Shown here: positions 5,112 to 60,164 of the stretch, piece after piece
Numbering within the stretch: the stretch's first letter is position 1
Layout: each line of letters starts with the position of its first letter
Assembly (NCBI RefSeq): GCF_988242995.1
Contig: NZ_OZ547043.1
DNA: 64,000 nt
Direction: 5' to 3' (one strand)
Made by a program: the position numbers and the translations under genes
The notes under the pieces: generated by a model
Seen by the model: only the letters and a program-made list of their open reading frames with translations
What the model was told of the DNA's origin: nothing
Databases searched by the model: none

Positions 5112-5138
5112 TGAGTGGTTCTGCAAGAGGAAATAAGC

Positions 5139-5339: not shown

Positions 5340-5344
5340 GCTGA

Positions 5345-5430
5345 GCGGCCGGATAAGGCGTTAACGCCGCATCCGGCAATGGTGAACGATGCCTGATACG
5401 ACGCATCACGCGTCTTATCAGGCCTACCCG
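5345..5430. repeat. REP/BIME extragenic palindromic repeats
   Basis: gccggataaggcgttaacgccgcatccggc and gcctgatacgacgcatcacgcgtcttatcaggcctac motifs. Confidence 0.8.
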
Positions 5431-5437
5431 GTTATTA

Positions 5438-6136: not shown

Positions 6137-6209
6137 GGCGAACTCCTTAACTGATGTCATTAATTTTACGCCGCTGACTCACAATGACCATGGGAGAAAA
6201 TTGAAGGAG

Positions 6210-8225: not shown

Positions 8226-8239
8226 CCCTGCCCCGGAAG

Positions 8240-9103
8240 TTAAATGCTTTTACCAAAAGTATTGCATTGTGCCGGATCGCCGCTGTCGAAACCACGTTTA
8301 AACCAGCTGTAGCGTTGCTGAGAAGTACCATGAGTGAAACTGTCTGGTACTACTCGCCCCTGACTTTGCTGTTGTAAACGGTCATCGCCGATGGCCTGCG
8401 CCGCATTCAGCGCCTCTTCCAGATCGCCGGTTTCCAGAACGCCTTGCTGCTGCATGCTATGCCCCCAGACACCGGCAAAACAGTCGGCCTGGAGTTCCAT
8501 ACGCACAGATAAGCGGTTCACTTCCGCCTGCGTCGCGTTTTGTTGCAGTTGACGAACTTTCGGCTCGATGCCTAACAGTTTCTGCACATGATGACCGACT
8601 TCATGGGCGATAACGTACCCCTGGGCAAAATCGCCATCCGCGCCAAGTTTGTCTTTCATGTCATCATAGAAGGAGAGATCGATATAAACCGTGCCATCCG
8701 CCGGGCAATAGAACGGTCCCATAATGGACTGGCCCGCCCCGCAGCCGGTGCGCGTCATTCCACGGTACATGACCAGCTTCGGTTGCTGATAGGTTTTACC
8801 CATCTTCTCGAATTGCTGTCCCCAGGTGTCTTCCGTGGTTGCCAGAATCACCGAAGTGAATTTTGCGGCTTCGTCTTCATTAGGACTAATTGACCGTGTT
8901 GATTGCTGTTGGGAAACCGGCTGTCCGGTCATCAACCCGGTTAAATCAACGCCATAGTAGCCTGCAACCAGCACGATTATCAGTAAAATCAGCCCGCCTT
9001 TACCGCTTGGCAGGCGAAAACCTGGACCGCCCATTGACGGACCACCAGAGCTGTTGCGCCTGTCTTCAACATTGTCACTTTCACGTCGCCCTTGCCAACG
9101 CAT
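8240..9103 (-). CDS. ypfJ: Putative zinc metallopeptidase YpfJ
   Basis: 287-aa ORF with N-terminal TM segment and HEVGHH zinc-binding motif. Confidence 0.88.
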
Positions 9104-9270
9104 AGATACCTCAACAATATATTCATTATAGAAATGATCGTAGGTGGTTCAGAGGAAGATTACCACAGGAAAGCGGGATGAAATGGCGGAGGAATGAGCG
9201 TTCAATGCACATCTTCCGAGAGCGGTTGTCTTGCCGTGCCAGCTGCACGGCAAGATGATGAACAGAAAAA

Positions 9271-9984
9271 TCAGTCCAGCTGTACACCCAGGCGGCGGGC
9301 GACGGCTTCATAGGCTTCGATCAGGCCACCGAGGCTCTGGCGGAAACGGTCTTTGTCCATTTTCTCCAGCGTTTCTTTGTCCCACAGGCGGCTGCCGTCC
9401 GGGGAGAACTCATCGCCCAGTACCACTTTACCTTTGTACAGGCCAAACTCCAGTTTAAAGTCGACCAAAATCAGACCAGCATCATCGAACAGTTTTTTCA
9501 GCACGTCGTTCGCTTTGTAGGTCAGCTCTTTCATACGCGCCAGGTTCTCTTTACTTACCCAGCCAAAGGTTTCGCAGTAAGATTCGTTGACCATCGGATC
9601 GTGCATGGCGTCGTTTTTCAGGAACAGATCGAACAGCGGCGGGTTCAGCTCAATACCTTCTTCGATTCCAAGACGTTTCACCAGAGAGCCAGCAGCACGG
9701 TTACGCACGACACACTCAACCGGCACCATATCCAGCTTTTTCACCAGACATTCGGTATCGGAGAGCAGACGCTCCATTTGAGTCGGGATACCCGCTTCAG
9801 CCAGTTTGCTCATAATGAAGTAGTTGAACTTGTTGTTCACCATACCTTTGCGATCAAACTGCTCAATGCGCGCGCCATCCCCTGCTGACGTATCATTGCG
9901 GAATTCGAGCACCAACAGGTCCGGGTTTTCCGTGCTGTATACGGTTTTCGCTTTACCACGATACAACTCAGCTTGCTTTTGCAT
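9271..9984 (-). CDS. purC: SAICAR synthetase
   Basis: ORF 9271..9993; start at [13 protein letters not shown] (237 aa). Confidence 0.95.
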
Positions 9985-10037
9985 CTTTATCACTCCTGGG
10001 TGTGAATTAACGTTTTAAAATCTTTTGCTGTCTGGTG

Positions 10038-10086
10038 TGCCGGATGTTTTGTCAGATGCGGCAAGAACGCCTTATCCGACCTACGT
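10038..10086. repeat. REP-like palindromic element
   Basis: tgccggatg ... gatgcggcaagaacgccttatccgacctacg. Confidence 0.6.
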
Positions 10087-10137
10087 CCGACAAACAAATT
10101 TAGTGCGAATTACCGCTAAAATCGCGTTTTCCTGCCG

Positions 10138-10153
10138 ACGCACACGTTTGCGT
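10138..10153. promoter_or_regulatory. PurR operator (PUR box) upstream of purC
   Basis: Palindrome acgcacacgtttgcgt (reverse complement acgcaaacgtgtgcgt) matching PurR box consensus. Confidence 0.7.
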
Positions 10154-10196
10154 ATCATATCAGAAAAAAGGGCCGGATGACTCCAGCCCTGTATTT

Positions 10197-11231
10197 TTAC
10201 TTGCTAAACGCAGCCTGGAAGACAGCTACCAGCGCGTCGTTCTGACTCTGAGTCAGAGTATGACCTTTCGGATCGATGAACTGTAGGCTGCTGCGGTTAT
10301 CTAAATCGCCAACCTGCAGTTTATAGTCACCGGATGCCAGGCCTGGATCGCTCGCGCCCAGTTCCTGCCAGTCGCTGTCAGACAGCGGCTTGTAAGTTAC
10401 GGCCATGTTACCCTGCGAACGGGTGCTGTCGGTCACTTTCATGCCCACTTTTTCCAGCGCCGCTGGCAGACGTTGCCAAACCACATTGAACGGCCCGCGT
10501 ACGACCAGCATCGGTAAACCGGTGTCATCAGCTGCACTTTGTACGTCCATAGTGGTGGAGGCACGATTTTGCGCAGCGTTCGCGGCGTCAGTGGCAGATT
10601 TATCCAGACCGGCGGAAATAACGTTCATCATCTCCGTGCTGTAACGCTGCATGGAAGCCGCGTCTGCAACCGGTTTGCCCGCCTGTTCCAGGTTCAGCAG
10701 TTTAACCGTAACCGCCTGCTGATAACCCTGCGGCTTAACAGAGATTTGATAACGACCACGATACTGCTCGTCTTCGTCCAGACGGTTCCATTGTACCCAA
10801 TCGGTGGTCAGTGTCTGACCAGCATCATCACGTTGGGTGATGGTGTAGTTTTTCGCCTGCAGCACGCTAACCACCTGCGGCCACAGAGTATTGCCACGAC
10901 CATTTTCCACCAGCAATGAAGCGGTATCGCCCGTGAACTGGGTACGCGCGCCAGAAACCAGTGCCAGCGGCTGGGCTGGTGGACGAATGTCCAGCGCCTT
11001 ACCGACAGCACCACTACCGTTGGTCACCGGGATTGCATAATCACCGGAGGTCACCGGCAAAATCATTCCAGCCGGGGCATGAAGCTCCGCAAGCGGTGCC
11101 GCTTCCAGGTAGGCTTCATCACCACTGACCTGACGCTTATAGCGTGAGTCAGAACTACAGGCAGCGAGTAATAAAACAAGCGAAACACCCGCAACCTTTG
11201 CCAGGCGCGACTTTTGAACAGAGTAAGCCAT
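10197..11231 (-). CDS. bamC: Outer membrane protein assembly lipoprotein BamC (NlpB)
   Basis: ORF 10197..11234; lipobox LLAAC in signal peptide; 344 aa from second Met. Confidence 0.93.
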
Positions 11232-11247
11232 CAAATCTCCCTAAACT

Positions 11248-12126
11248 TTACAGCAAACCGGCATGCTTAAGCGCCGCTCTGACCGTCTCACGACCACTGT
11301 CGGTGATTGGTGTCATTGGCAGGCGCAGCGTATCGGTCGCCACAAGACCCAGTTCCTTACATGCCCATTTCACCGGGATTGGATTGGGTTCGACAAATAG
11401 TTTGTTGTGTAATGGCATCAGACGCTGATTAATAACGCGTGCCTCGGCAAAATGCCCTTCTGCTGCCAGTTTGCACATCTGGGCCATATCACGCGCTGCG
11501 ACGTTAGCCGTAACGGAAATAACCCCATGACCGCCTAATTGCATGAAGTCCAGCGCGCTCGCATCATCGCCGCTCAGCAGAACAAAATCATCTGAAACCA
11601 GCTCTTTGATCTGGTTTACACGCGTTAAGTTCCCTGTTGCCTCTTTGATTCCGATAATATTTTTTACTTTCGCCAGACGGCCCACCGTTTCCGGGAGCAG
11701 ATCGCAGCCAGTACGGGACGGCACATTATACAGAATTTGCGGCAGGTCAGTATGTTCAGCGATGGCTTTGAAATGCTGATACAAACCTTCTTGCGACGGA
11801 CGATTGTAGTAAGGGGTTACCGTCAGGCAGCCGACGATACCACTGTCATTGAAGCGCTGCGTCAGGCTAATGGCTTCCACAGTAGCGTTAGCGCCGGTCC
11901 CGGCAATCACCGGAATGCGCCCGTCAGCCAGCTCCAGCGTCATCATCACCACATCAGCATGTTCGTCATGATTTAAGGTAGCGGACTCGCCAGTGGTGCC
12001 AACAGAAACGATCGCCGAAGTACCGCTGGCGACATGATAATCAATCAGTTTTTTCAAGCTAGCCCGACAGACATTACCTTTTTCATCCATCGGAGTAACA
12101 ATCGCGACAATACTTCCCGTGAACAT
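11248..12126 (-). CDS. dapA: 4-hydroxy-tetrahydrodipicolinate synthase
   Basis: ORF 11248..12144; start at [13 protein letters not shown] (292 aa). Confidence 0.95.
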
Positions 12127-12271
12127 GGGCCATCCTCTGTGCAAACAAGTGTCTCAATGGTACGTTTGGTATGGCATTAAAAGCAAGCAGACAGAACCGT
12201 TCTGATTGTTGTATGCATGTTTTTTTTATGCTTTCCTTAAGAACAACTCACCCCTTAAAGGAATAACCAGT

Positions 12272-12844
12272 TTGACACTGTCATCGCAACATTATCTGGT
12301 GATCACTGCGTTGGGTGCCGATCGCCCTGGAATTGTGAACACCATCACCCGTCATGTCAGTAGTTGCGGCTGTAATATTGAAGACAGTCGCCTGGCGATG
12401 CTGGGAGAAGAGTTCACGTTTATCATGCTGCTTTCCGGTTCATGGAATGCCATTACTCTGATTGAATCAACGTTACCGTTGAAAGGTGCCGAGCTGGATC
12501 TTTTAATCGTGATGAAGCGCACGACGGCGCGTCCGCGTCCGCCAATGCCAGCATCTGTCTGGGTTCAGGTCGATGTGGCAGACTCCCCGCATTTAATTGA
12601 ACGCTTCACAGCACTTTTCGACGCGCATCATATGAACATTGCGGAGCTGGTGTCACGCACGCAACCTGCTGAAAATGAACGGGCTGCGCAGTTGCATATT
12701 CAGATAACCGCCCACAGCCCCGCATCTGCGGACGCAGCAAATATTGAGCAAGCGTTCAAAGCCCTATGTACAGAACTCAATGCACAAGGCAGTATTAACG
12801 TCGTCAATTATTCCCAACATGATGAACAGGATGGAGTTAAGTAA
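12272..12844 (+). CDS. gcvR: Glycine cleavage system transcriptional repressor GcvR; probable TTG start
   Basis: ORF 12206..12844; LTLSSQHYLVITALGADRPGIV matches GcvR N-terminus, start inferred at the TTG codon (190 aa). Confidence 0.85.
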   Translation: MTLSSQHYLVITALGADRPGIVNTITRHVSSCGCNIEDSRLAMLGEEFTFIMLLSGSWNAITLIESTLPLKGAELDLLIVMKRTTARPRPPMPASVWVQVDVADSPHLIERFTALFDAHHMNIAELVSRTQPAENERAAQLHIQITAHSPASADAANIEQAFKALCTELNAQGSINVVNYSQHDEQDGVK

Positions 12845-13314
12845 TGAATCCACTGAAAGCCGGTGATATCGCACCGAAATTTAGCTTGCCGGATCAAGAC
12901 GGAGAACAAGTTAATTTGACCGACTTCCAGGGACAGCGTGTTCTGGTTTATTTCTACCCGAAAGCCATGACCCCCGGCTGTACCGTACAGGCCTGCGGCT
13001 TACGCGATAACATGGATGAGTTGAAAAAAGCGGGCGTTGATGTGCTGGGTATCAGCACCGATAAACCCGAAAAACTCTCCCGTTTTGCGGAAAAAGAGCT
13101 GCTTAACTTTACGCTCCTGTCTGATGAGGACCACCAGGTGTGCGAACAATTCGGCGTCTGGGGTGAAAAGTCCTTCATGGGCAAAACCTACGATGGTATT
13201 CATCGCATCAGCTTCCTGATTGACGCTGATGGCAAAATCGAACATGTCTTTGACGATTTCAAAACCAGCAATCACCACGACGTTGTGCTGAACTGGCTGA
13301 AAGAACACGCCTGA
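12844..13314 (+). CDS. bcp: Peroxiredoxin Bcp (thiol peroxidase)
   Basis: 156-aa ORF with PGCT peroxidatic Cys motif; start overlaps gcvR stop (TAATG). Confidence 0.95.
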   Translation: MNPLKAGDIAPKFSLPDQDGEQVNLTDFQGQRVLVYFYPKAMTPGCTVQACGLRDNMDELKKAGVDVLGISTDKPEKLSRFAEKELLNFTLLSDEDHQVCEQFGVWGEKSFMGKTYDGIHRISFLIDADGKIEHVFDDFKTSNHHDVVLNWLKEHA

Positions 13315-13509
13315 TTACTTTGCTCCATTCCGTGCTGGCTGCGCTTGCGGTCAGCACACCTCACTTCTCGTGATCAAGATCACATTCTCGCTTTCCCCTG
13401 CGACACGGGTGTCGAATTCATTTTTTGCTGAACGTTAATGACCATCATTTTTGTACCGTTCAGAATCCAGTTAATACATAACTTATTGAATATATTAAAT
13501 TAATCAGAC

Positions 13510-13526
13510 TGGCATCCTTTATGCAA
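13510..13526 (+). promoter_or_regulatory. Sigma54 (-24/-12) promoter of the hyf operon
   Basis: tGGcatcctttatGCaa: GG and GC elements 10 nt apart, ~40 nt upstream of hyfA start; hyfR (sigma54 activator) encoded at the operon end. Confidence 0.7.
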
Positions 13527-13566
13527 TATGAAATGCAATGTTTCATATCATTTTCAAGGAGCCGAC

Positions 13567-14184
13567 ATGAACCGCTTTGTGGTGGCCGAACCACTGTGGT
13601 GTACAGGATGTAATACCTGTCTCGCTGCCTGTTCGGACGTGCATAAAACGCAAGGTTTACAGCAACACCCGCGCCTGGCCCTGGCGAAGACGTCAACACT
13701 CACTGCCCCTGTCGTGTGTCATCACTGTGAGGAAGCCCCTTGCCTGCAGGTCTGCCCGGTCAATGCCATCTCCCAGAGGGATGATGCGATCCAACTCAAC
13801 GAAAGCCTTTGTATTGGCTGCAAGCTTTGCGCCGTGGTCTGCCCATTTGGCGCAATCAGCGCTACAGGAAGCCGTCCGGTGAATGCCCCTGCGCAATATG
13901 TTTTTCAGTCTGAGGGCTCACTCAAAGACGGAGAAGTAAACGCGCCGACCCAACATGCTTTGCTGCGCTGGGAACCGGGTGTCCAGACCGTCGCGGTGAA
14001 ATGCGACCTGTGTGATTTCTTGCCAGGAGGTCCGGCCTGCGTTCGCGCTTGCCCGAATCAGGCGTTACGGCTGATCACCGACGATAGCCTGCAACGTCAG
14101 ATGAAAGAAAAACAGCGCCTTGCCGCAAGCTGGTTTGCCAATGGCGGGGAGGATCCCCTTTCCCTCACTCAGGAGCAACGCTAA
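13567..14184 (+). CDS. hyfA: Hydrogenase-4 component A, 4Fe-4S ferredoxin-type
   Basis: ORF 13528..14184; start at MNRFVVAEP (205 aa); multiple CxxCxxCxxxCP clusters. Confidence 0.93.
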   Translation: MNRFVVAEPLWCTGCNTCLAACSDVHKTQGLQQHPRLALAKTSTLTAPVVCHHCEEAPCLQVCPVNAISQRDDAIQLNESLCIGCKLCAVVCPFGAISATGSRPVNAPAQYVFQSEGSLKDGEVNAPTQHALLRWEPGVQTVAVKCDLCDFLPGGPACVRACPNQALRLITDDSLQRQMKEKQRLAASWFANGGEDPLSLTQEQR

Positions 14185-16202
14185 TGGATGCCCTGCAATT
14201 ATTAACCTGGTCGCTGATCCTCTATCTGTTTGCCAGTCTGGCTTCGCTGTTTTTACTCGGTCTGGACAGACTGGCTATTAAGCTTTCCGGCATCACATCG
14301 CTGGTGGGTGGCGTGATTGGCATCATCAGCGGAATTACGCAATTACATGCAGGCGTAACTTTAGTCGCCCGTTTTGCCACGCCTTTTGACTTTGCCGATT
14401 TAACCCTGCGAATGGATAGCCTCTCGGCATTTATGGTGCTGGTTTTCTCCTTGCTGGTGGTGGTTTGTTCGCTCTATTCATTGACTTATATGCGCGAATA
14501 CGAGGGCAAAGGCGCGGCGGCGATGGGCTTCTTTATGAATCTTTTCATCGCATCGATGGTTGCCCTGCTGGTGATGGACAACGCTTTTTGGTTCATCGTG
14601 CTGTTTGAAATGATGTCGCTGTCTTCCTGGTTTCTGGTCATTGCCAGGCAGGATAAAACGTCAATCAACGCTGGCATGCTCTACTTTTTTATCGCCCACG
14701 CCGGATCGGTGCTGATTATGATCGCCTTCTTGCTGATGTGGCGCGAAAGCGGCAGCCTCGATTTTGCCAGTTTCCGCACGCTTTCACTTTCTCCGGGGCT
14801 GGCGTCGGCGGTGTTCCTGCTGGCCTTCTTCGGTTTTGGCGCGAAAGCCGGGATGATGCCGTTGCACAGCTGGTTGCCACGCGCTCACCCTGCCGCACCA
14901 TCGCACGCTTCGGCGTTGATGTCTGGCGTAATGGTCAAAATCGGTATTTTCGGCATCCTGAAAGTAGCGATGGACCTGCTGGCGCAAACGGGTTTGCCGC
15001 TGTGGTGGGGCATTCTGGTGATGGCGATCGGCGCAATCTCCGCGCTCCTGGGCGTGCTGTATGCGCTGGCGGAACAGGATATCAAACGGCTGCTGGCCTG
15101 GAGTACCGTCGAAAACGTCGGCATTATTTTGCTGGCGGTCGGTGTGGCGATGGTCGGTCTGTCACTGCACGACCCGCTGCTCACCGTTGTTGGACTGCTC
15201 GGCGCGCTGTTTCATCTGCTCAACCATGCGCTGTTCAAAGGGCTGCTGTTTCTCGGCGCGGGCGCGATTATTTCGCGTTTGCATACCCACGACATGGAAA
15301 AAATGGGGGCACTGGCAAAACGGATGCCGTGGACAGCCGCAGCATGCCTGATTGGTTGCCTCGCGATATCAGCCATTCCTCCGCTGAATGGTTTTATCAG
15401 CGAATGGTACACCTGGCAGTCGCTGTTCTCACTAAGTCGTGTGGAAGCCGTAGCGCTACAACTTGCGGGTCCTATTGCTATGGTGATGCTGGCAGTCACT
15501 GGTGGGCTGGCAGTAATGTGCTTCGTCAAAATGTACGGTATTACTTTCTGTGGAGCGCCGCGCAGTACACACGCTGAAGAGGCACAGGAAGTGCCAAATA
15601 CGATGATCGTCGCCATGCTACTGCTCGCGGCACTCTGCGTATTCATTGCGCTTAGTGCCAGTTGGCTAGCACCGAAGATAATGCACATTGCCCATGCGTT
15701 TACCAATACCCCTCCCGTCACTGTCGCCAGCGGAATAGCACTTGTACCCGGCACGTTTCATACACGGGTCACTCCCTCATTACTGTTGCTGTTACTACTG
15801 GCAATGCCTTTGCTGCCTGGCCTTTACTGGCTATGGTGTCGTTCGCGCCGCGCAGCGTTTCGTCGCACAGGAGATGCCTGGGCATGCGGCTACGGCTGGG
15901 AAAATGCGATGGCCCCGTCAGGCAATGGCGTGATGCAGCCGCTGCGTGTGGTCTTTTGTGCGCTATTTCGTCTACGACAACAGCTCGACCCTACGCTGAG
16001 GCTGAACAAAGGTCTTGCGCACGTCACCGCCAGGGCTCAGAGCACAGAACCCTTCTGGGATGAGCGGGTGATCCGCCCCATCGTGAGCGCCACCCAACGG
16101 CTGGCCAAAGAAGTACAGCATCTGCAAAGCGGCGACTTTCGTCTCTATTGCCTGTATGTGGTTGCCGCACTGGTTGTGCTGCTAATCGCTATTGCCGTCT
16201 AA
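14184..16202 (+). CDS. hyfB: Hydrogenase-4 membrane subunit B (NuoL/MrpA-like antiporter subunit)
   Basis: 672-aa polytopic membrane ORF. Confidence 0.93.
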   Translation: MDALQLLTWSLILYLFASLASLFLLGLDRLAIKLSGITSLVGGVIGIISGITQLHAGVTLVARFATPFDFADLTLRMDSLSAFMVLVFSLLVVVCSLYSLTYMREYEGKGAAAMGFFMNLFIASMVALLVMDNAFWFIVLFEMMSLSSWFLVIARQDKTSINAGMLYFFIAHAGSVLIMIAFLLMWRESGSLDFASFRTLSLSPGLASAVFLLAFFGFGAKAGMMPLHSWLPRAHPAAPSHASALMSGVMVKIGIFGILKVAMDLLAQTGLPLWWGILVMAIGAISALLGVLYALAEQDIKRLLAWSTVENVGIILLAVGVAMVGLSLHDPLLTVVGLLGALFHLLNHALFKGLLFLGAGAIISRLHTHDMEKMGALAKRMPWTAAACLIGCLAISAIPPLNGFISEWYTWQSLFSLSRVEAVALQLAGPIAMVMLAVTGGLAVMCFVKMYGITFCGAPRSTHAEEAQEVPNTMIVAMLLLAALCVFIALSASWLAPKIMHIAHAFTNTPPVTVASGIALVPGTFHTRVTPSLLLLLLLAMPLLPGLYWLWCRSRRAAFRRTGDAWACGYGWENAMAPSGNGVMQPLRVVFCALFRLRQQLDPTLRLNKGLAHVTARAQSTEPFWDERVIRPIVSATQRLAKEVQHLQSGDFRLYCLYVVAALVVLLIAIAV

Positions 16203-16212
16203 GGAAATCACC

Positions 16213-17160
16213 ATGAGACAAACTCTTTGCGACGGATATCTGATCATTTTTGCGTTAGCACAGGCCGTGATTCTGCTGGTGCTAACCCCGCTTTTTACGG
16301 GGATTTCCCGGCAGATACGCGCGCGAATGCACTCCCGTCGCGGACCGGGGATCTGGCAGGATTATCGCGATATCCACAAACTGTTTAAACGCCAGGAAGT
16401 TGCGCCGACATCTTCAGGTCTGATGTTCCGCCTGATGCCGTGGGTATTAATCAGCAGCATGCTGGTGCTGGCGATGGCCCTACCACTATTTATTACCGTT
16501 TCCCCTTTTGCGGGCGGCGGCGATCTGATCACCCTTATCTATCTTCTTGCCCTGTTTCGTTTTTTCTTTGCTCTTTCAGGGCTGGATACCGGAAGCCCGT
16601 TTGCGGGAGTCGGTGCCAGTCGCGAGTTGACGCTCGGCATTCTGGTCGAACCCATGCTCATTCTCTCAATGCTGGTATTGGCGCTGATAGCGGATTCCAC
16701 GCATATCGAGATGATCAGCAAGACGCTGGCGACGGGCTGGAACTCGCCGCTAACCACCGTACTGGCGTTACTGGCCTGTGGTTTTGCCTGCTTCATTGAG
16801 ATGGGAAAAATTCCCTTTGATGTTGCTGAAGCAGAACAGGAATTACAGGAAGGCCCGCTAACCGAATATTCCGGTGCCGGGCTGGCGCTAGCGAAATGGG
16901 GGCTGGGGCTGAAACAGGTCGTGATGGCAGCACTGTTTGTGGCCCTGTTTCTGCCCTTTGGGCGCGCGCAAGAACTTTCTCTCGCCTGCCTGCTGACTTC
17001 ACTTGTCGTTACGCTGCTCAAGGTTTTGCTGATTTTTGTACTGGCCTCAATCGCAGAAAACACGCTGGCACGCGGGCGTTTTTTACTCATTCACCATGTG
17101 ACCTGGCTTGGCTTCAGCCTTGCTGCGCTTGCATGGGTCTTCTGGTTAACCGGTCTGTAA
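16213..17160 (+). CDS. hyfC: Hydrogenase-4 membrane subunit C (NuoH-like)
   Basis: ORF 16192..17160; start at MRQTLCDGY (315 aa). Confidence 0.9.
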   Translation: MRQTLCDGYLIIFALAQAVILLVLTPLFTGISRQIRARMHSRRGPGIWQDYRDIHKLFKRQEVAPTSSGLMFRLMPWVLISSMLVLAMALPLFITVSPFAGGGDLITLIYLLALFRFFFALSGLDTGSPFAGVGASRELTLGILVEPMLILSMLVLALIADSTHIEMISKTLATGWNSPLTTVLALLACGFACFIEMGKIPFDVAEAEQELQEGPLTEYSGAGLALAKWGLGLKQVVMAALFVALFLPFGRAQELSLACLLTSLVVTLLKVLLIFVLASIAENTLARGRFLLIHHVTWLGFSLAALAWVFWLTGL

Positions 17161-17176
17161 GGAGCACTGACGGAAT

Positions 17177-18616
17177 ATGGAAAATCTTGCTCTGACGACG
17201 TTAATGCTGCCTTTTATCGGCGCACTGGTCGTTTCGTTTTCGCCACAACGTCGGGCCGCCGAATGGGGGGTTTTGTTCGCCGCGCTGACCACGCTGTGCA
17301 TGTTGTCACTGATCTCCGCGTTTTATCAGGCCGATAAAGTTGCCGTCACGTTGACGTTGGTCAACGTGGGGGATGTGGCGTTGTTTGGCCTGGTCATTGA
17401 TCGCGTGAGTACGCTGATTCTGTTTGTGGTGGTGTTTCTCGGTTTGCTGGTCACGATCTACTCCACGGGTTATCTGACGGATAAAAATCGCGAACACCCG
17501 CATAACGGCACGAATCGTTATTACGCATTTTTGCTGGTGTTTATCGGCGCGATGGCGGGACTGGTACTCTCTTCGACGCTGCTCGGTCAGTTGTTGTTTT
17601 TTGAAATTACGGGCGGCTGCTCCTGGGCGTTGATCAGTTATTACCAGAGCGATAAAGCGCAGCGTTCGGCACTAAAAGCGTTGCTTATTACCCATATCGG
17701 TTCGTTGGGGTTGTATCTTGCCGCCGCCACGCTGTTTTTGCAGACCGGAACGTTTGCGCTTAGCGCGATGAGCGAGTTACACGGCGACGCACGTTATCTG
17801 GTTTATGGCGGCATCCTGTTTGCCGCGTGGGGGAAATCGGCCCAGCTACCGATGCAAGCGTGGCTACCGGATGCAATGGAAGCGCCAACACCGATCAGCG
17901 CCTATCTCCACGCCGCATCGATGGTGAAAGTGGGCGTTTACATTTTTGCCCGTGCCATTATCGACGGCGGCAATATCCCGCATGTGATTGGCGGCGTTGG
18001 CATGGTTATGGCACTGGTCACCATTCTTTATGGCTTCCTGATGTATTTGCCACAGCAGGATATGAAGCGGTTGCTGGCCTGGTCGACCATCACTCAACTT
18101 GGCTGGATGTTTTTCGGCTTGTCGCTCTCCATCTTCGGCTCGCGGCTGGCGCTGGAGGGTAGCATCGCTTACATCGTCAACCACGCGTTCGCTAAAAGCC
18201 TGTTTTTCCTTGTAGCAGGTGCGCTGAGTTACAGCTGCGGCACGCGCTTGTTGCCGCGTCTGCGTGGCGTATTGCACACCCTGCCGTTGCCAGGCGTGGG
18301 TTTCTGCGTGGCAGCGCTGGCAATTACCGGCGTGCCGCCGTTCAACGGCTTCTTCAGTAAATTCCCGCTGTTTGCTGCCGGTTTTGCGTTGTCAGTGGAG
18401 TACTGGATCCTGCTGCCCGCCATGATTCTGCTGATGATTGAATCGGTCGCCAGTTTCGCCTGGTTTATTCGCTGGTTTGGTCGCGTCGTGCCTGGCAAAC
18501 CTAGCGAGGCCGTCGCCGATGCCGCTCCGCTGCCAGGATCAATGCGCCTGGTGTTGATTGTACTGATTGTGATGTCGCTGATTTCCAGCGTAATCGCCGC
18601 GACCTGGTTGCAGTAA
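17177..18616 (+). CDS. hyfD: Hydrogenase-4 membrane subunit D (NuoM/N-like)
   Basis: 479-aa polytopic membrane ORF. Confidence 0.92.
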   Translation: MENLALTTLMLPFIGALVVSFSPQRRAAEWGVLFAALTTLCMLSLISAFYQADKVAVTLTLVNVGDVALFGLVIDRVSTLILFVVVFLGLLVTIYSTGYLTDKNREHPHNGTNRYYAFLLVFIGAMAGLVLSSTLLGQLLFFEITGGCSWALISYYQSDKAQRSALKALLITHIGSLGLYLAAATLFLQTGTFALSAMSELHGDARYLVYGGILFAAWGKSAQLPMQAWLPDAMEAPTPISAYLHAASMVKVGVYIFARAIIDGGNIPHVIGGVGMVMALVTILYGFLMYLPQQDMKRLLAWSTITQLGWMFFGLSLSIFGSRLALEGSIAYIVNHAFAKSLFFLVAGALSYSCGTRLLPRLRGVLHTLPLPGVGFCVAALAITGVPPFNGFFSKFPLFAAGFALSVEYWILLPAMILLMIESVASFAWFIRWFGRVVPGKPSEAVADAAPLPGSMRLVLIVLIVMSLISSVIAATWLQ

Positions 18617-18627
18617 GGAGATGATGA

Positions 18628-19278
18628 ATGACCGGTTCTATGATCGTAAATAATCTGGCAGGACTGATGATGCTGACATCGCTGTTTGTGATTAGCGTCA
18701 AAAGCTATCGCCTGTCATGCGGATTTTACGCCTGCCAGTCACTGGTGCTGGTGTCTATTTTCGCCACCCTCTCGTGCCTGTTCGCCGCAGAGCAACTGCT
18801 GATCTGGTCCGCCAGCGCCTTTATCACCAAAGTGCTGCTGGTGCCGTTAATCATGACTTACGCTGCACGAAATATTCCCCAGAACATCCCGGAAAAAGCG
18901 TTATTCGGTCCGGCAATGATGACACTGCTCGCGGCGTTAATTGTCCTGCTTTGCGCATTTGTCGTTCAGCCCGTGAAGCTACCGATGGCTACCGGGCTGA
19001 AACCGGCGCTGGCGGTGGCGTTAGGTCATTTTCTGCTTGGCCTGCTGTGCATTGTCAGCCAGCGCAATATCCTGCGGCAAATCTTTGGTTACTGCCTGCT
19101 GGAAAACGGCTCCCATCTGGTGCTGTCGCTTCTAGCCTGGCGTGCACCGGAACTGGTGGAAATTGGTATCGCTACCGACGCCATCTTCGCCGTCATTGTA
19201 ATGGTGTTACTGGCAAGAAAAATATGGCGTACCCACGGCACGCTGGACGTGAACAACTTGACCGCGCTGAAGGGATAA
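18628..19278 (+). CDS. hyfE: Hydrogenase-4 membrane subunit E
   Basis: 216-aa membrane ORF. Confidence 0.92.
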
Positions 19279-19282
19279 TGAG

Positions 19283-20863
19283 ATGAGTTATTCTGTGATG
19301 TTCGCTTTACTCCTGCTCACGCCGCTGCTTTTTTCGCTGCTCTGTTTTGCCTGCCGAAAACGGGGGCACTCTGCGACTCGCGCGGTGACAGTATTACATA
19401 GCTTAGGGATCACACTGCTGCTGATTCTGGCACTCTGGGTGGTCCAAACTGCCGCTGATGCGGGAGAAATATTCGCTGCGGGACTGTGGCTTCATATTGA
19501 TGGTCTGGGCGGTTTGTTCCTCGCCATTCTTGGTGTGATTGGCTTTCTCACCGGTGTTTACTCGATTGGCTACATGCGTCATGAAGTGGAGCACGGCGAG
19601 CTTTCACCCGTTACGCTGTGCGATTACTACGGTTTCTTCCATCTGTTTTTGTTCACCATGCTGCTGGTTGTTACCAGCAATAACCTGATTGTGATGTGGG
19701 CGGCGATCGAAGCCACCACCTTAAGCTCGGCGTTTCTGGTAGGCATTTACGGTCAGCGTTCATCGCTGGAAGCTGCATGGAAGTACATCATTATTTGTAC
19801 TGTTGGTGTCGCTTTTGGTCTGTTCGGTACCGTGCTGGTATACGCCAACGCCGCCAGCGTTATGCCGCAGGCAGAAATGGCGATATTCTGGAGCGAGGTT
19901 CTTAAGCAATCGTCCTTGCTTGACCCAACATTAATGCTGTTGGCCTTTGTGTTTGTGCTAATTGGCTTTGGCACTAAAACCGGGCTATTCCCCATGCACG
20001 CCTGGCTGCCAGATGCTCACAGTGAAGCGCCGAGTCCGGTCAGCGCCCTGCTCTCCGCCGTATTGCTGAACTGCGCGCTGTTGGTGCTTATTCGCTATTA
20101 CATCATTATTTGCCAGGCCATCGGCAGCGATTTCCCCAACCGGTTGTTGCTCATCTTCGGCATGTTGTCGGTTGCCGTGGCGGCATTTTTCATTCTGGTA
20201 CAGCGGGACATTAAGCGTCTGCTGGCGTACTCCAGCGTGGAGAACATGGGACTGGTCGCGGTGGCGCTAGGCATTGGCGGGCCGCTGGGAATTTTTGCCG
20301 CGCTGCTGCACACCTTAAACCACAGTCTGGCAAAAACGCTGTTGTTCTGCGGTTCCGGCAATGTACTGCTCAAGTACGGCACGCGCGATCTCAACGTCGT
20401 CTGCGGAATGCTTAAAATCATGCCATTTACCGCCGTGTTGTTTGGCGGCGGTGCGCTGGCGCTGGCCGGGATGCCGCCCTTCAACATTTTTCTTAGCGAA
20501 TTTATGACCGTTACCGCCGGACTGGCGCGTAATCATCTGCTGCTTATCGTCCTGCTGTTATTGCTGTTAACGCTGGTGCTGGCGGGCCTGGTACGGATGG
20601 CTGCGCGGGTGTTAATGGCGAAACCGCCGCAGGCCGTTAACCGGGGTGAACTTGGCTGGTTGACCACCTCGCCAATGGTGATTCTGCTGGTCATGATGCT
20701 GGCGATGGGAACGCATATTCCACAACCTGTCATCAGGATCCTGGCGGGCGCTTCCACTATAGTCCTCTCAGGGACGCACGACCTGCCTGCACAACGTAGC
20801 ACCTGGCATGATTTTTTGCCTTCAGGCACCGCATCTGTTTCGGAGAAACACAGTGAACGTTAA
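19283..20863 (+). CDS. hyfF: Hydrogenase-4 membrane subunit F (NuoN/MrpD-like)
   Basis: 526-aa membrane ORF. Confidence 0.92.
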
Positions 20864-54700: not shown

Positions 54701-56834
54701 AAGAAAGGTAGTTTTGCTTAAAGCCGGAATAGGTGTCGATGTTGCCCGTGGCCAGGTTCACCGACGCGTGCGACGTCTCTTCCACCGCACTAAGATACGC
54801 TTTTTGCAACGTTGGCCAGCCATATTCGGTGCCGATGACATTGGCTGGATGTGCGGCAAACAAACTGTGCAATGAGCTTTGGCTCGGAATATGACCTAAA
54901 CCACACTCAGCCTGCATACTGCTATTCTGATCAAACAGCGCCCAGTCTTCGTTATTTTCCCGCACTGCTCCCAGTTCGTTGTCGGTTTCATCCGCCAGCC
55001 GTGGGCGTTTAAAGATATTATTCGCTTCAATAATGCCTAACATATGTCCCCACATCCGCGCTTTGTCGGAATCAGGGCTGGTGATCACCGTAAAAATAAC
55101 GTCTTTCTCATCCGAGGCGGTAAAATCACTGCGCATTTTCGCGGTGATGTGTGTTTTCACCCCCACGCCGCCTGGCTGGGTCAGCGTCAGAGAGGCCTCT
55201 CCGTTAGCATCAGTGATCCCTTCATAGGTATGGGCGTCAACTTTGCGAACGTTACTGCCACCATCAATTTGTACCGGGTGCGTCTCCCACGCAGCGTCAG
55301 TTTGATTCTTACGGTTAACACCGTCATCCAGATGCAGCGAAAAGTAGTAGTAAGCCAGCGGCTGATCGTTGTTCTTGCTATCGGTAATCGTCAGGCGTAA
55401 AGAAGCCTCTTCCCCCACCTTTACTTTCATCGCTTTTATCGTCGAATCATAACTGCCCGGCGTCAGTACCAGCTTCGGTTCAACATCGGGCGCTTCTTTA
55501 TCGACACAGCTCACAATAAACGTCGTATCGTCCGGTTTTTGCGCTTCGCTGCGGTTCGAAACATCCGCCGCATGGTGCTGGCCGCTCATCCCCGCCAGTG
55601 ATGACCAGTAGAAATTACCCTGCATCGGCCAACCAGCCACATCCTGCACTGACGTTGGCACCACCGTCGCCAGCGCACCGAAATGACGCATTCCGGGCAA
55701 AATGTCGCAATGTTTATCCGCGCCGCTCCAGGTAAAGGTGGACCAGGTTTCATTGTGATCGTTAACCGTACCGTCTTCATTATCGACTTCCGCCGCCAGT
55801 TTTGGTCGACTAAAAGTGTAATCACGGGCCTTCAGCGTATCGGGCATATGACCCCACATTGTAGCCTGCGGGACATCCGGGCTGGTGAGGACGGTAAAGA
55901 TCACTGCCGTTTCACTGGCCTGAGCAATACCCGCGAGGCTCGCGACCAACGGCGTTTTTACACCAGGGCCGTTGGCCTGGGTGACCGTAACCGTGGCAAC
56001 ACCATTCGCATCAGTAGTACCACGATATTCCGTCGCGGTGGTGGTTAATTCGGTCGTGCCCAGTTTTACCGGCGCAGTATTGTTCACCACACCCTGGCGG
56101 TTTTCAGCATCTTTGCGTTTGATAACAAAAGGAATATTCCCCACAACATTACCGACGCAATCTTTGGTGGTGACCGTTAACGTGATACTGCCGCCAACCG
56201 TCGTTTTCGCCGCACCGGAGGATTCGTCATAGCCCGCGGCGCTGACGGAAATAAGGTCACCCTGCGCGGGCGCAATCTTCAGCGTCACTTTCTGATCGGC
56301 GAGGGTCAGAACACTTTCATAGGGATAGCCCGTCGAGGTAAGTAGATATAACAGCGGCATGGTCTGCTGGGGGTCTGGCTGCGCCCAGGCGATCAGCGAA
56401 CGCCCGGCAAGGCCCTGTGCGCAAAATGAGCGATCTGCGACTGGCTGTGGGTCCAGTAAGGTGTCCGGCGTCGCGGCATCCGCCCAAACTAAAGATACTG
56501 TCGGTGGCGTTTGGTTTTCCCAACGTGGTGTGGCAATGATATCGCCTTCTCTGTCTTGCGGGTTGGTGACGAGCAATTTAGAGACGCTAACATCCGCGCT
56601 GAATTCACTCGGTTTAGCGGTAAACGCTACCTCATTCGTCTTTGCAGGATCCAGAAAGACACTGCCCTGGTAGACGGGTATGCTGGCACTGTCGGCGGTG
56701 GGCACGGTACCGTTAAATTCGCCGACCGTATCTGAAGAGTCTTGCCATGCAGATTCTGCCCATGACCACCCAGGCAGCATTGCGCTTATCAGCAATGCGC
56801 ATAACACAAGGATTTTATTCAGGGTCAGGGACAT
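48792..56834 (-). CDS. Giant (2680 aa) secreted Ig-like repeat protein, RatA/RatB-like; signal peptide followed by nine tandem ~280-aa modules
   Basis: Single uninterrupted ORF; N-terminal signal peptide [26 protein letters not shown]; nine copies of the motif FTV(I/V)TSPD...(M/F/Y)WGHM; GGAG RBS 9 nt upstream. Confidence 0.85.
49000..56100. repeat. Nine diverged tandem DNA repeats (period ~800-855 bp) inside the giant gene
   Basis: Plus-strand core catatg(n)cccca (= WGHM codons) recurs at ~49148, 49983, 50832, 51686, 52539, 53391, 54237, 55041, 55846. Confidence 0.8.
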
Positions 56835-56881: not shown

Positions 56882-56910
56882 ATTTTGCTTAATCCGGGAT
56901 TAAGCAAAAT
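56882..56910. promoter_or_regulatory. 29-bp perfect palindrome between sinI-like gene and giant gene (candidate operator or RNA structure)
   Basis: ATTTTGCTTAATCC-G-GGATTAAGCAAAAT: 14-bp arms with a 1-nt centre. Confidence 0.5.
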
Positions 56911-56919
56911 ATGCGGAAA

Positions 56920-56943
56920 CAGCATTCCCTTGCGGGAATGCTG
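56920..56943 (-). terminator. Stem-loop 12 nt after sinI-like stop (candidate attenuator / partial terminator)
   Basis: 10-bp stem cagcattccc/gggaatgctg, 4-nt loop, followed on the mRNA strand by UUU. Confidence 0.45.
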
Positions 56944-56954: not shown

Positions 56955-57932
56955 TTATTTGTGTTTGTAAATAATGTGAAGTTTGTAACCCTGTACCCCG
57001 TCGCCGTTTGTCGGAATGGTAAGAGCCTCTTTACCATCGCGCGCAGGACCGTTAAGGTTGGTTCTGGCCTCGTCGTTGGTCGCAGGGATGGCCAGATTGT
57101 TATTATCGAAGCTTGAGTTAACGATACCACCCGAAGTGCCGAGCTGCTGGCTGCTGCCAGAAAGTACCCAACGGAAGTCATAATTGGCGGTAACGTCAGC
57201 ATCGGTACCCGCATCAAACTTGCCGTTTTTGTTCTCATCCGAGTAAAGTTTGGCCACGTAGGTTTTGCCAAGTTCGATTGGCGTGCTGCCGTTGATAAGG
57301 TTGATACTGGTACCATCAACAAAGATGGCGACTTTCAGGTTCTGGTTAACCACCGGCCCTGGCGCAACGTTATCGCTGTCGCTTCCGCCGCCGTCGGCAG
57401 TAGAAACGTCATAAAGATGCAGCGCAGTCCCGACGTTTGGCGTACCGGTCTGCGTGGTTGGCGTAATTTCAATACCGATATAACGACCACGGTCGTCATC
57501 GGTAAGAGTGTAACTGGTCACCTTCGTTGCCAGCTCTTTTGGATCGTTACCCTGAGCGTCCTTGTAGCTCATCCAGCGGATAGTATCGATAGTCTTTGCG
57601 TTATCGCCCAATCCCCCAAGATCCACGTCGCCTTCGGTATCACCAATTTCCCAACTTACGGTTAATTTATCACCCGAGTAAAGACGCTTGTCCGTTTCAC
57701 TACCTGTCGGGCGAGCGCCTTTTAGATCAGAAGTCAACGTTACATGGTCGGCATCTGTCGTAGCGCTTCCCCCTTCCGAATAGAGCCACGGAATGGTTCC
57801 CTGGAAAATATTGGTTTCGCCGCTTTCGACCCAGGCGCTTTCTTCCGCCAGCGCCACAGGTGCCACACAATAACCTGCCAATGCCAGCGCCAATGCGATC
57901 CGGGTCAGACCGCGTCTTTTATCCTGCTTCAT
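56955..57932 (-). CDS. sinI: SinI-like secreted protein (CS54-island sivI homolog)
   Basis: 325-aa ORF with signal peptide MKQDKRRGLTRIALALALAGYCVAPVALA; AGGAGA RBS; C-terminal ~110 aa resemble the C-terminus of the adjacent SinH-like protein. Confidence 0.8.
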   Translation of the reverse strand: MKQDKRRGLTRIALALALAGYCVAPVALAEESAWVESGETNIFQGTIPWLYSEGGSATTDADHVTLTSDLKGARPTGSETDKRLYSGDKLTVSWEIGDTEGDVDLGGLGDNAKTIDTIRWMSYKDAQGNDPKELATKVTSYTLTDDDRGRYIGIEITPTTQTGTPNVGTALHLYDVSTADGGGSDSDNVAPGPVVNQNLKVAIFVDGTSINLINGSTPIELGKTYVAKLYSDENKNGKFDAGTDADVTANYDFRWVLSGSSQQLGTSGGIVNSSFDNNNLAIPATNDEARTNLNGPARDGKEALTIPTNGDGVQGYKLHIIYKHK

Positions 57933-57986
57933 TGATGCTCTCCTTAATGAACCTTCAGCGACTGGCCGACTGGCCTTACGCCAATC

Positions 57987-60164
57987 TTATTTTTTGGTAT
58001 ACAGCACGCGTAAACCGTATCCCTGCAAGCCATCTCCCGCTTGTGCGCCATAGGTTTGCGCTGCTTCGCGGTTAGTGGCCGGAATCACAATGTCCTCATT
58101 GGAAGTGTTCGCCTGTGCACCCACTTCACCATTGATGCTCTTGCCGGTAAATTCCCACTTGTAGTCGTACTGCGCCATCTCTTCGTCAGTCAGTTTTTCG
58201 ACCTGCTGGAAGACACCGTCTTTATTGCTGTCACGCCACAAAACAAATCGATAAGTGTTGTTGAGCGGCAGCGGTTCTTTATCTTTACCTATCAGGTTGC
58301 TGGGTTTAGCTGCCCCCACACGATAGATAAATGCATTTAGCCCACCAATTTCTGCCCCGAGGAAAGTGACATCCACATAGTTACTGTCGTCGTAGGGCGC
58401 AGCTTTTGCTTTCCAGCGATAGGTGCCGGGTAAGGTACTGGAGAGGGTGACAGTGCCCTTTTCTTTATCTTGTTTAGCGATAAAAACGCAGGGGTTGTCG
58501 GTCGAGCAAGGCTTGTTGGTTAACGTCACTCGTTTGTCCTGCGCGTCGTAAAGCTGCGGCGTGAGGTTATCTTCCGGCAGCGCATCGCCATTGCGGTCGG
58601 TGTTATCGCCAAAGCTGTCGGTTACATCGAGATCCATCACCACACCATCAACGCCATCTGCCTGAGCGCTGGCTTCGTGGCTGTGGTTGTTCTCTTCCGG
58701 CACGTTCGCGATGTTATTAACAATCAACTCTATTTTACGGTCCTGCTGAACGGTGATTTCCACCACGCCAGAGTTCTGTCGGTTGCCCTTTTCATCTTCC
58801 AGTGCCAGACGTACTCGCCAGGTATTGAGTTTTTCTTGTTCGGCTTTGTCAGAGCTGTACTGCCAGGCGGGCAGCACCAGGTTCCAGTGGTTATTGTTAC
58901 CCTCTGTCAGGGTATTCTCTTTGATAACCGGCATAACCAACGTGCGGGCAGCATTGTTTTTCGCCTGCCATGACGCAGCGACAATTTTGTAGTGGTGGTT
59001 GATAAGCGCGTTAATGGTCCATTTACATTTTTCCAGCCCGACGGCCGCTTCGGGAGTGTCCTTAATGACGCACTCAGGGTGCTCGTTGGTGGCATCCGCT
59101 TTTAACCACAGGGTGACATCAAGCGGATCTTTTTCTTTGTATTCCAGAACAATAAAGTTATTACGCTCAACAAAATCATGACGACTGCCCATCAACGAGT
59201 GAGCCGCTTTCACTTTATCGCTATCCAATTGATCTTTTAGCGGAACGCCGAACTGATAATTAAGAGTGGCATTAATGCTGACATCGCTGTTATCTCCGGT
59301 CCCCGCTTTATAGTCCGCCCCAACGGTTAGTAATGGCACCGGTTGATAATTCAGTCCAAGTGTTACCGCGTAGGGATCTTTCTCCAAATTATCCGTACCA
59401 AAAAGGGCGACTTCATCGCCGTAATATTGCTCGAAGACAACTTTGCCCCCCAGTTGCGGATAAGAAGGTAACCAGGCTTCGGCACGAATATCCCAGCCGC
59501 GCGCAGGGCGTTCTTCATAAAAGTCGAAATCTTCAGAGTCTTTCCAGTCAGAAAGCGGATGATAATAGTTGCCAGAGAATTTTAAATAATCAGTCCACGC
59601 TTCGCCGCCTAAACCTAAACGGCGATGTCCTCGGGTAAAATCATAATCATAAAATATATTTCCGCCCAATAACCATTCATCAAAATTATGTCTTACCCCA
59701 AGACCAATATTCCCGATTGTACGATCTTCTTTTCGTTGCGCAGAAAATTGACTGAAATAAACAGTGGTTTGATTATCGTACCAGGGAACAAAATAATCGA
59801 TGGAACTACCATCCAGATCGCCGTCCTGGCCAATGGAGAGGTTCGAACGGACCTTACCGTAGGGAGAGAGTGTGTCTTCAATATAAGATTGTGCGGTTGA
59901 GGTGATTTGACTTTGCAGATAGCTTCTGGCCTGAGATTCCAGCGCCTCAGGGGTCAAGTTTTCAAACCCTTGCGTGGCGGAGTTGATGACGTAATCGGCT
60001 CCGCGCTCTTTCAGCGATTTACCCTTGTTGGTTTGTTCATCCTGCTGTGCTGCCTGGCTACCTAAATCAGGTAACGATTCGTTTTGCTTAACATTTATCT
60101 CTGGTGCCGCGAAAGCAGCACCAGAGATAAATGTTAGCATAATACAGCGTTTCCATCGCAGCAT
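57987..60164 (-). CDS. sinH: Intimin/invasin-family inverse autotransporter (type Ve), SinH-like
   Basis: ORF 57987..60194; start chosen at ATG 60164 giving signal peptide MLRWKRCIMLTFISGAAFA; beta-barrel translocator signature (GGNIFYDYDF...LGLGGEAWTDYLKFSGNYYH) followed by passenger domains. Confidence 0.85.
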   Translation of the reverse strand: MLRWKRCIMLTFISGAAFAAPEINVKQNESLPDLGSQAAQQDEQTNKGKSLKERGADYVINSATQGFENLTPEALESQARSYLQSQITSTAQSYIEDTLSPYGKVRSNLSIGQDGDLDGSSIDYFVPWYDNQTTVYFSQFSAQRKEDRTIGNIGLGVRHNFDEWLLGGNIFYDYDFTRGHRRLGLGGEAWTDYLKFSGNYYHPLSDWKDSEDFDFYEERPARGWDIRAEAWLPSYPQLGGKVVFEQYYGDEVALFGTDNLEKDPYAVTLGLNYQPVPLLTVGADYKAGTGDNSDVSINATLNYQFGVPLKDQLDSDKVKAAHSLMGSRHDFVERNNFIVLEYKEKDPLDVTLWLKADATNEHPECVIKDTPEAAVGLEKCKWTINALINHHYKIVAASWQAKNNAARTLVMPVIKENTLTEGNNNHWNLVLPAWQYSSDKAEQEKLNTWRVRLALEDEKGNRQNSGVVEITVQQDRKIELIVNNIANVPEENNHSHEASAQADGVDGVVMDLDVTDSFGDNTDRNGDALPEDNLTPQLYDAQDKRVTLTNKPCSTDNPCVFIAKQDKEKGTVTLSSTLPGTYRWKAKAAPYDDSNYVDVTFLGAEIGGLNAFIYRVGAAKPSNLIGKDKEPLPLNNTYRFVLWRDSNKDGVFQQVEKLTDEEMAQYDYKWEFTGKSINGEVGAQANTSNEDIVIPATNREAAQTYGAQAGDGLQGYGLRVLYTKK
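60089..60136. repeat. Perfect 19-bp inverted repeat (10-nt spacer) inside the sinH signal-peptide coding region
   Basis: taacatttatctctggtgc (60089-60107) ... gcaccagagataaatgtta (60118-60136); also creates a mirror-image ORF on the plus strand. Confidence 0.9.

Follow-up and report, generated by a model that had tools for sequence, protein, structure and literature searches.

In the CS54 island of Salmonella a gene for an inverse autotransporter, SinH, stands together with genes for SinI and for the large Rat proteins RatA and RatB, and the E. coli locus termed ‘ila’ (IatB) belongs to the same family. The Rat proteins are 2000–3000 aa in length and, like SinI, have no barrel of their own; RatB and SinH are gut-colonisation factors of Salmonella, and SinH also counts among the vaccine candidates against extraintestinal E. 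coli. The subject of the present work is a further locus of this family, here lying between xseA and der in a stretch of 64,000 nucleotides (contig NZ_OZ547043.1 of the NCBI RefSeq assembly GCF_988242995.1; this whole stretch is called the window below), and more particularly its sinI gene, whose product resembles a giant RatA-like protein at its N-terminus and the tip of SinH at its C-terminus. An initial annotation of the window had noted both resemblances, and had gone on to suggest that SinI may be a free-standing paralogue of the SinH tip, that this tip could be receptor-binding as in intimin and invasin, and that the shared N-terminal segment may be an export or docking module.

A good deal about such loci is already known, namely the locus itself, its three protein families, the similarity between SinI and SinH, and the hypothesis that the partners are substrates of SinH. 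The similarity is reported by Heinz et al. (2016), who cite Kingsley et al. (2003) for it (PMC4943183), and was repeated by Goh et al. (2019) for the E. coli orthologue IatB (PMC6714894); that SinI and Rat-like proteins are substrates of SinH has been proposed in both of these papers, and sinH and sinI are reported to be co-transcribed (PMC12525524). The N-terminal region of the Rat proteins was called ‘highly divergent’ by Heinz et al. (PMC4943183), and no description of the shared N-terminal module discussed below was found in the literature, so that this module seems to be undescribed. Relative to the CS54 and ‘ila’ loci, the window represents a divergent sinI/rat allele type in which the motif is of the ‘EF’ form and the NLKxG prefix is missing.

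The ZirTSU system of Salmonella likewise consists of an inverse autotransporter (IAT)-type barrel followed by barrel-less, Sec-exported partners with immunoglobulin (Ig)-like domains that resemble the passenger, and the gene content of the present locus agrees with this arrangement. The middle domain of SinI is ZirU-like, but it falls below the cutoff of the ZirU family (residues 69–210 match the NCBIfam model ZirU_fam, NF040485, with E=6.5e-7 and 29.7 bits, where the cutoff is 100), so that SinI is not classed as a ZirU protein. Since ZirTS was described in 2008 it has reportedly been a question how the partners of inverse autotransporters reach the cell surface or stay there. Secretion of ZirS depends on ZirT (PMC2270342), as shown for ZirS and ZirT only.

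Intimin and invasin have a homologous barrel, and the passenger of SinH, like theirs, is Ig-like and ends distally in a terminal domain; this domain, however, is not a C-type-lectin-like receptor head. We know of no partners co-encoded with intimin or invasin that bear a copy of their tip.

Homologies at the two ends of SinI

Both resemblances are best taken as homologies that arose by module shuffling inside one adhesin operon (sinH–sinI–ratA-like, of ‘ila’/CS54 type), the alignments being statistically significant at either end of SinI. SinI is a mosaic in four parts: a Sec signal peptide; an N-terminal module (N-module), about 75 aa long; an Ig domain resembling that of ZirU; and a copy of the SinH tip. 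The giant RatA-like adhesin, and the smaller lectin-tipped partners that occur in other genera, begin with the same N-module.

At the C-terminus, SinI residues 211–325 align with SinH residues 633–735 (in the 735-aa numbering of SinH) with a BLASTP score of 55.8 bits, E=9e-13 and 36% identity, and each family model also recognises the other protein: the NCBIfam SinI model matches SinH 629–732 with E=4.4e-21 and the SinH model matches SinI 208–325 with E=8.2e-11. The parallel drawn in the initial annotation between these two segments therefore goes far beyond chance. Over 21 loci the two tips have in common the blocks NLI, TYrFvLW.D.N.DG, YDY.WeFTG.S, IPATN.EA and DGvQGYGL, and these are kept in SinH and SinI from Escherichia to Buttiauxella; the SinH tip carries the motif GDGLQGYGLRV, a ‘D8’ passenger motif in the naming of Tsai et al. 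(2010; PMC3008723). The C-terminal domain of SinI is a true paralogue of the SinH tip, a duplicated copy of it. Paralogy apart, the description of SinI as a free-standing tip needs qualification, as SinI also has the N-module and the ZirU-like Ig domain. Nor does homology support the proposed likeness to the receptor-binding tips of intimin and invasin: none was found between the SinH or SinI tips and the C-type-lectin-like heads, intimin D3 or invasin D5, and the tips are not assigned to the receptor heads. Neither SinI nor the SinI family profile gave anything useful in sequence searches of the PDB.

For the N-terminus the similarity is weak if only the pair encoded in the window is considered, and becomes significant for the mature ends and for the family profiles. 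With signal peptides included, SinI and the giant protein give only E=0.084 in BLASTP. The mature proteins were taken to start at E30 in SinI (signal peptide 1–29) and at E27 in the giant protein; the starts assumed at first had to be corrected to these positions, while the resemblance itself stands. On this basis the first 100 aa of each mature protein give a Smith–Waterman score of 50, against 27.9 ± 5.1 for shuffled sequences (p=0.0016), and the first 25 residues a score of 48, against 18.3 ± 4.2, which none of 5000 shuffles reached; once the signal peptides have been removed, similarity due to chance or to the signal peptides is ruled out. A comparison by hhalign of the family profile of mature SinI N-termini with that of mature Rat N-termini (probability 89.5%, E=2e-6) matched 78 columns, running from the motif at the mature end to a common D-x-E-G-D some 63 residues further on. 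What was noticed originally as a resemblance over 20 residues therefore forms the beginning of a longer homologous module, which measures about 75 residues. The shared N-terminal segment is in this sense a true shared module.

Across 22 SinI homologues W34, T40, G45, P48 and W49 are invariant, Rat-family N-termini read ‘..LKGGTWQEL..STDAINGTVP.AD’, and in a joint SinI/Rat alignment (A4), for which the mean column identity is 41%, G, P and D..D are invariant and T is nearly so. In most lineages the mature ends of the two proteins are nearly alike within one locus. Much clearer cases than that of the window occur in other lineages, for example in Citrobacter youngae, where SinI has ‘NLKSGQWQIVTDSTGTIQGTVPW’ and the Rat protein ‘VLKSGTWQEVNAATDAINGTVPL’.

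The head of the module may be written W-x5-[ST]-T-[GD]-x-[IF]-x-G-T-x-P, and its specificity was gauged with a strict core pattern, [ST][STA][GDAS]x[IFLV]xG[TS]xP. Six-frame open reading frames (ORFs) from 23 related loci, 224,181 aa in all, contain 36 matches to this pattern, every one of them (36/36) at the N-terminus of a partner; within the same loci it is absent both from the interior of the Rat repeats (tens of thousands of residues) and from SinH. The SinI of the window (‘ETNIFQGTIP’) does not itself match the strict core pattern, the motif there having been assigned by alignment. When a profile of the module made from A4 was run with HMMER against 1.84 billion representative proteins, 74 matches were obtained at E<=1e-3, of which 44 reach E<=1e-10. 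These 44 strong matches, if a small number of truncated fragments are set aside, begin at residues ~13–40, directly after the signal peptide; the weaker tail holds about 12 unrelated Ig-repeat proteins, aligned to the DxEGD half only.

Three architectures occur among the carriers: SinI-like proteins of 296–341 aa; Rat-like adhesins, which range from 376 to ~3000 aa and among which are Salmonella RatB and a RatA-type protein; and proteins of ~360 aa, here called ‘partner2’, that combine the N-terminal half of SinI with an intimin-like Big_2 domain and a lectin-like C-terminus. In every case for which the genomic context is available, the gene of the carrier immediately follows an IAT_beta gene: the order IAT–SinI–Rat is found in ~20 species of Escherichia, Citrobacter, Pseudocitrobacter, Superficieibacter, Leminorella, Lelliottia and Buttiauxella, and three further, distant carriers are likewise placed. 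No accessory gene is conserved in these loci beyond the IAT gene and the partners. Possession of the N-module is characteristic of proteins whose genes accompany those of SinH-type inverse autotransporters. Lelliottia, Buttiauxella and their relatives have, in place of the giant Rat gene, genes for small partners of 360–440 aa (Table 1). In these the N-module, either by itself or together with the SinI Ig domain, precedes an intimin-like Big_2 domain and a lectin-like C-terminal domain, which is a further case of module shuffling within the same system.

A possible address tag, and the alternatives

The distribution of the N-module fits a system-specific export or docking role. The favoured reading is that the N-module is an address tag, and that SinH uses it to recognise its partners once Sec has exported them; to this reading, from the sequence comparisons and the modelling taken together, we would give an even chance. 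SinH would act as the outer-membrane anchor, with its inverse-autotransporter barrel and an Ig-like passenger ending in the tip; the partners would leave the cytoplasm via Sec, SinH would then recognise their N-module, and recognition would lead either to passage of the partner across the outer membrane or to its being held on the surface. The best candidates for the receptor of such a tag would be the conserved tips of SinH and SinI. In the literature the ZirT-dependent ZirS/ZirU secretion offers a precedent (PMC2270342). Nothing already established is overturned by the finding, but a short, invariant and system-specific tag offers a concrete handle on partner recognition by inverse autotransporters, and makes an open question experimentally simple.

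In classical two-partner secretion (TPS; TpsA/TpsB, e.g. FHA/FhaC), too, large secreted adhesins encoded beside their outer-membrane transporter have a conserved element where the mature protein begins, which provides an analogy for such an address tag. There the TPS domain is a β-helix of ~250 aa with NPNL and NPNGI motifs, and the transporter TpsB belongs to the Omp85 proteins and has POTRA domains (PMC2270342), whereas here the tag measures ~20–75 aa, has another motif, and is paired with an IAT barrel as membrane partner. In a Pfam scan neither SinI nor the RatA-like protein had a TPS (haemagglutination activity) domain, and SinH has IAT_beta rather than Omp85, so that the locus does not belong among classical TPS systems. 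The N-module also seems to be absent from ZirU and specific to SinH-type systems, as judged from profile coordinates and the module search: the ZirU profile aligns to the middle Ig domain of SinI only, from position ~18–25, which leaves room for a signal peptide but not for the module, and no ZirS- or ZirU-like protein occurs among the module matches from the 1.84 billion proteins. A profile of the middle Ig domain returned only SinI fragments, and no ZirU or ZirS.

Variation in the motif bears on the same question. In the clade of the window (E. coli 042 type, and Pseudocitrobacter) the NLKxG prefix has been lost and SinI and Rat alike have T-x-E-F-x-G-T, while in other clades SinI and Rat alike have T-[GD]-x-I-x-G-T; in a genome with two full IAT–SinI–Rat triads in tandem (Table 1) SinI and Rat of the same triad agree in motif type, the first triad of L028 having a short Rat protein of 784 aa and a motif type of its own. 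Such matching fits a common binding partner that would have co-evolved with the tag. A search for SinH positions co-varying with the motif type placed four of five clade-discriminating columns at 617–634, at the start of the tip, and was rejected as evidence because this stretch is generally variable, because the comparison rests on about one independent event, and because the SinI tips show no clear parallel change.

In an AlphaFold2 (AF2) model of SinI alone the tag is disordered (residues 1–62 have a predicted local distance difference test score, pLDDT, below 50), whereas the Ig domain reaches 65–90 and the tip 78–93. A second model was made of a single fused chain, in which the SinH tip, mature SinI and the mature Rat N-domain were joined in that order by two flexible linkers, using an alignment in which the three segments were paired by locus, together with unpaired rows. 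For this chain of 650 residues the mean pLDDT is 83.5 and the predicted template modelling score (pTM) 0.61, with values below 50 only in the linkers and the first seven residues; SinI 34–73 now has pLDDT 81–90 and Rat 34–53 has 86–94, with short β-bridges. By the pTM formula, a value of 0.61 over 650 residues implies that about 400 residues are modelled in one confident rigid frame, which is more than SinI alone (297) could supply. The ordering of the tag in the fusion is as tag–tip docking would predict, without amounting to proof of it.

If tags do dock on tips, they might do so by strand addition, as donor and acceptor, forming a chain from SinH through SinI (possibly several copies) to a terminal adhesin; this extension of the address-tag reading is speculative and, in our estimation, rather improbable. 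SinH would contribute a tip only, SinI both tag and tip, and the Rat and lectin-tipped partners, which carry the lectin-like domains, a tag only. Assembly would take place outside the cell, giving a non-covalent pilus-like fibre on an inverse autotransporter that would require no chaperone, usher or sortase. The analogy, and it is no more than that, is with donor-strand chaperone–usher pilins, which are Ig-like subunits having a conserved N-terminal extension that is disordered alone and ordered when paired; the logic of the modules is similar, in that the anchor is acceptor only, the middle subunit both, and the distal adhesin donor only, but the SinH locus has no chaperone or usher, and an incomplete-Ig acceptor groove is here putative. 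Such a chain, if it exists, would account for the way in which giant Rat adhesins without an anchor stay on the cell. More generally, tag–tip pairing, if true, would be a new way of building multi-protein adhesins, and would bear on SinH-based vaccine design, as the partners may mask the tip.

There are several points that weigh against SinH recognising the module in any of these ways. Dependence of SinI and Rat proteins on SinH is itself a proposal, and ZirU, the only proven type of substrate, appears not to have the module. The matched EF and I variants amount to approximately one clade and one evolutionary event, and could also have arisen by gene conversion. One SinI-like carrier, P0209 (L027 8001–9026), has a basic low-complexity segment of ~50 residues between its signal peptide and the motif, and is the sole carrier seen with the tag away from the mature N-terminus. 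The similarity extends into the first half of the Ig-like domain, so that the tag may belong to a fold which the proteins have in common instead of being a free signal. As for the models, the tag of SinI alone is not docked on its own tip, and pLDDT and pTM, by which the fusion was judged, do not show what the tags contact; the alignment of the fusion also placed the motif more cleanly than did that of the monomer, and the gain in confidence could in part be an alignment effect or due to intramolecular packing.

Several of these same observations suit the chief alternative, namely that the N-terminal similarity reflects no more than common descent of an Ig-like domain, of which the motif would form the first strand or strands with no part in recognition. 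The hhalign match does run 78 columns into the Ig domain as far as DxEGD, ordering in the fusion may be intramolecular or produced by the alignment, P0209 tolerates its ~50 additional residues ahead of the motif, and the ‘partner2’ proteins reuse the whole N-terminal half of SinI as a block. Common descent does not, however, lead one to expect a motif so much more conserved between the families than the rest of the domain (G and P invariant and T nearly so, against a mean column identity of 41%), one that is not packed on the domain in the model of SinI alone, that never occurs within the internal Ig repeats, and whose variants in SinI and Rat are matched within a locus. We regard this explanation as possible although on the unlikely side.

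A host-receptor-binding tip, with SinI as a free and possibly secreted copy serving as an alternative or competing adhesin head, was the interpretation first placed on the SinI–SinH similarity. It has in its favour the distal position of the tip on the SinH passenger, the description of SinH in reviews as adhesive and surface exposed (PMC12525524), and the fact that SinI, although it has a Sec signal, is without an anchor. We nevertheless think it improbable, given that homology to the C-type-lectin-like heads of intimin and invasin is missing, that conservation of the tip blocks in both SinH and SinI from Escherichia to Buttiauxella would be unusual for a host-facing site, and that the lectin-like adhesion domains of this system are located in the Rat and ‘partner2’ proteins instead.

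It is still less probable, to the point of being a distinctly poor prospect, that the motif is read by some other factor, such as a periplasmic chaperone, the BAM/TAM machinery, a processing protease or a modifying enzyme. The motif does adjoin the signal-peptidase site, and its link with SinH is inferred, but the loci contain no conserved accessory gene that might encode such a factor, and a general factor would be expected to have more clients than a motif confined to these operons among 1.84e9 proteins. Chance or compositional resemblance, for which only the E=0.084 of the whole-protein BLASTP comparison at the N-terminus of the window pair could be quoted, has a negligible likelihood, being refuted by BLASTP, family models, hhalign, shuffles, motif counts and the profile search.

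The locus, its genes and minor observations

The window is 99.5% identical to E. coli chromosomes (e.g. strain 042, in which the first gene is annotated sinH), and the three genes form a minus-strand cluster sinH–sinI–ratA-like flanked by der/yfgJ and xseA, sinI starting 54 nt after sinH; the ratA-like giant gene lies beyond positions 56955–60164, to which the initial annotation referred. The 5-kb sinH–sinI region is mostly present in ~941 of 5426 complete E. coli genomes.

Assignment of the three proteins is straightforward. SinH scores 1487.2 bits against the NCBIfam equivalog model inverse_SinH (NF033423, cutoff 999) and has the IAT_beta barrel, which matches the invasin/intimin barrels in the PDB (4e1t, E=4e-73; 4e1s, E=1e-64), there being no other PDB matches for SinH. 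SinI scores 336.7 bits against NF040711 (cutoff 165), its residues 7–322 spanning positions 2–299 of the 299 in the model; a Pfam scan found no IAT_beta, and nothing else significant, in it, and as expected for this family it is barrel-less and its gene directly follows one for a SinH-type inverse autotransporter, an order kept in ~20 loci. Its signal peptide has a basic n-region, a hydrophobic core and an A-x-A site, whose position is kept in the 22 homologues. The RatA-like protein scores 5394.7 bits against NF011844 (cutoff 3870), and its Pfam repeats are nine BIg21 and nine InvE_AD domains in alternating pairs.

Table 1 Coordinates of the features discussed. Positions refer to the window unless a locus is named; SinH residues are in the 735-aa numbering.
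Feature	Coordinates	Strand	Basis or remark
sinH, intimin-like inverse autotransporter	57987..60164	-	725 aa from RefSeq-style ATG; ORF reaches TTG at 60194
SinH outer-membrane β-barrel (IAT_beta), residues 73-346	59157..59978	-	Pfam PF11924, E=2.9e-109
SinH C-terminal tip domain, residues 629-735	57990..58310	-	homologous to SinI 208-325
sinI, SinI-family autotransporter-associated protein, 325 aa	56955..57932	-	NCBIfam partner_SinI
Sec signal peptide of SinI, residues 1-29, with cleavage predicted at ALA|EE	57846..57932	-	read from sequence
SinI N-terminal partner motif, residues 30-49, EESAWVESGETNIFQGTIPW	57786..57845	-	assigned by alignment
SinI N-module, residues 30-104, motif through GDTEGDVD	57621..57845	-	hhalign to Rat proteins; joint alignment A4
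SinI middle Ig-like β-sandwich domain, ~residues 63-178, ZirU-like	57399..57746	-	AF2 model, pLDDT 65-90
SinI C-terminal tip domain, residues 208-325, SinH-tip paralogue	56958..57311	-	BLASTP; SinH model; AF2 pLDDT 78-93
ratA-like giant adhesin gene, 2680 aa	48792..56834	-	NCBIfam RatA-like; Pfam repeats
RatA-like N-terminal partner motif, residues 27-46, just after signal peptide 1-26	56697..56756	-	W-Q...ST[GD]xI/F-N-G-T-x-P across Rat-family N-termini
RatA-like N-module, residues 27-100, motif through QDREGD	56535..56756	-	hhalign; alignment A4; fusion pLDDT 86-96
Small-partner genes of other genera	L020 1728-2861; L022 10805-11971; L025 2155-3243; L027 9112-10440; L023 11429-12688
Tandem IAT–SinI–Rat triads	L028 (GCA_022846255.1, AP025682.1) 4740-18355; also L029		triads flank small zinc-ribbon gene yfgJ

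Comparison of the window with three other Escherichia spp. loci (L007, L008 and L019) gave 88% identity for SinH, 44–45% for SinI and ~60–66% for the Rat N-terminus. Such sharply divergent sinI/rat allele types behind a conserved sinH suggest recombination or diversifying selection downstream of sinH.

The 120 nt that separate the stop of sinI from the start of the ratA-like gene contain two hairpins on the minus strand within 56882–56943, one at 56920–56943 (CAGCATTCCC-gcaa-GGGAATGCTG, then TTTCC) and the other formed by a 12-bp inverted repeat at 56882–56910 (ATTTTGCTTAAT/ATTAAGCAAAAT). A simple terminator scan did not flag these intergenic hairpins, and scanning the operon for promoters and terminators did no better than on shuffled sequences; the hairpins could serve in transcript attenuation or processing ahead of the giant gene.

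Among the related sequences collected, a 3.1-kb contig labelled as a metagenome-assembled genome of Collinsella sp., of the Actinobacteria (L002, JAIJJM010000381.1), carries the end of sinH, sinI and the start of ratA with 98% identity to the E. coli locus; this contig is almost certainly mis-binned E. coli. Elsewhere in the window, positions 14000–20000 show an AT skew of -0.20 to -0.25 across plus-strand ORFs of 322–672 aa, unlike the rest of the window.

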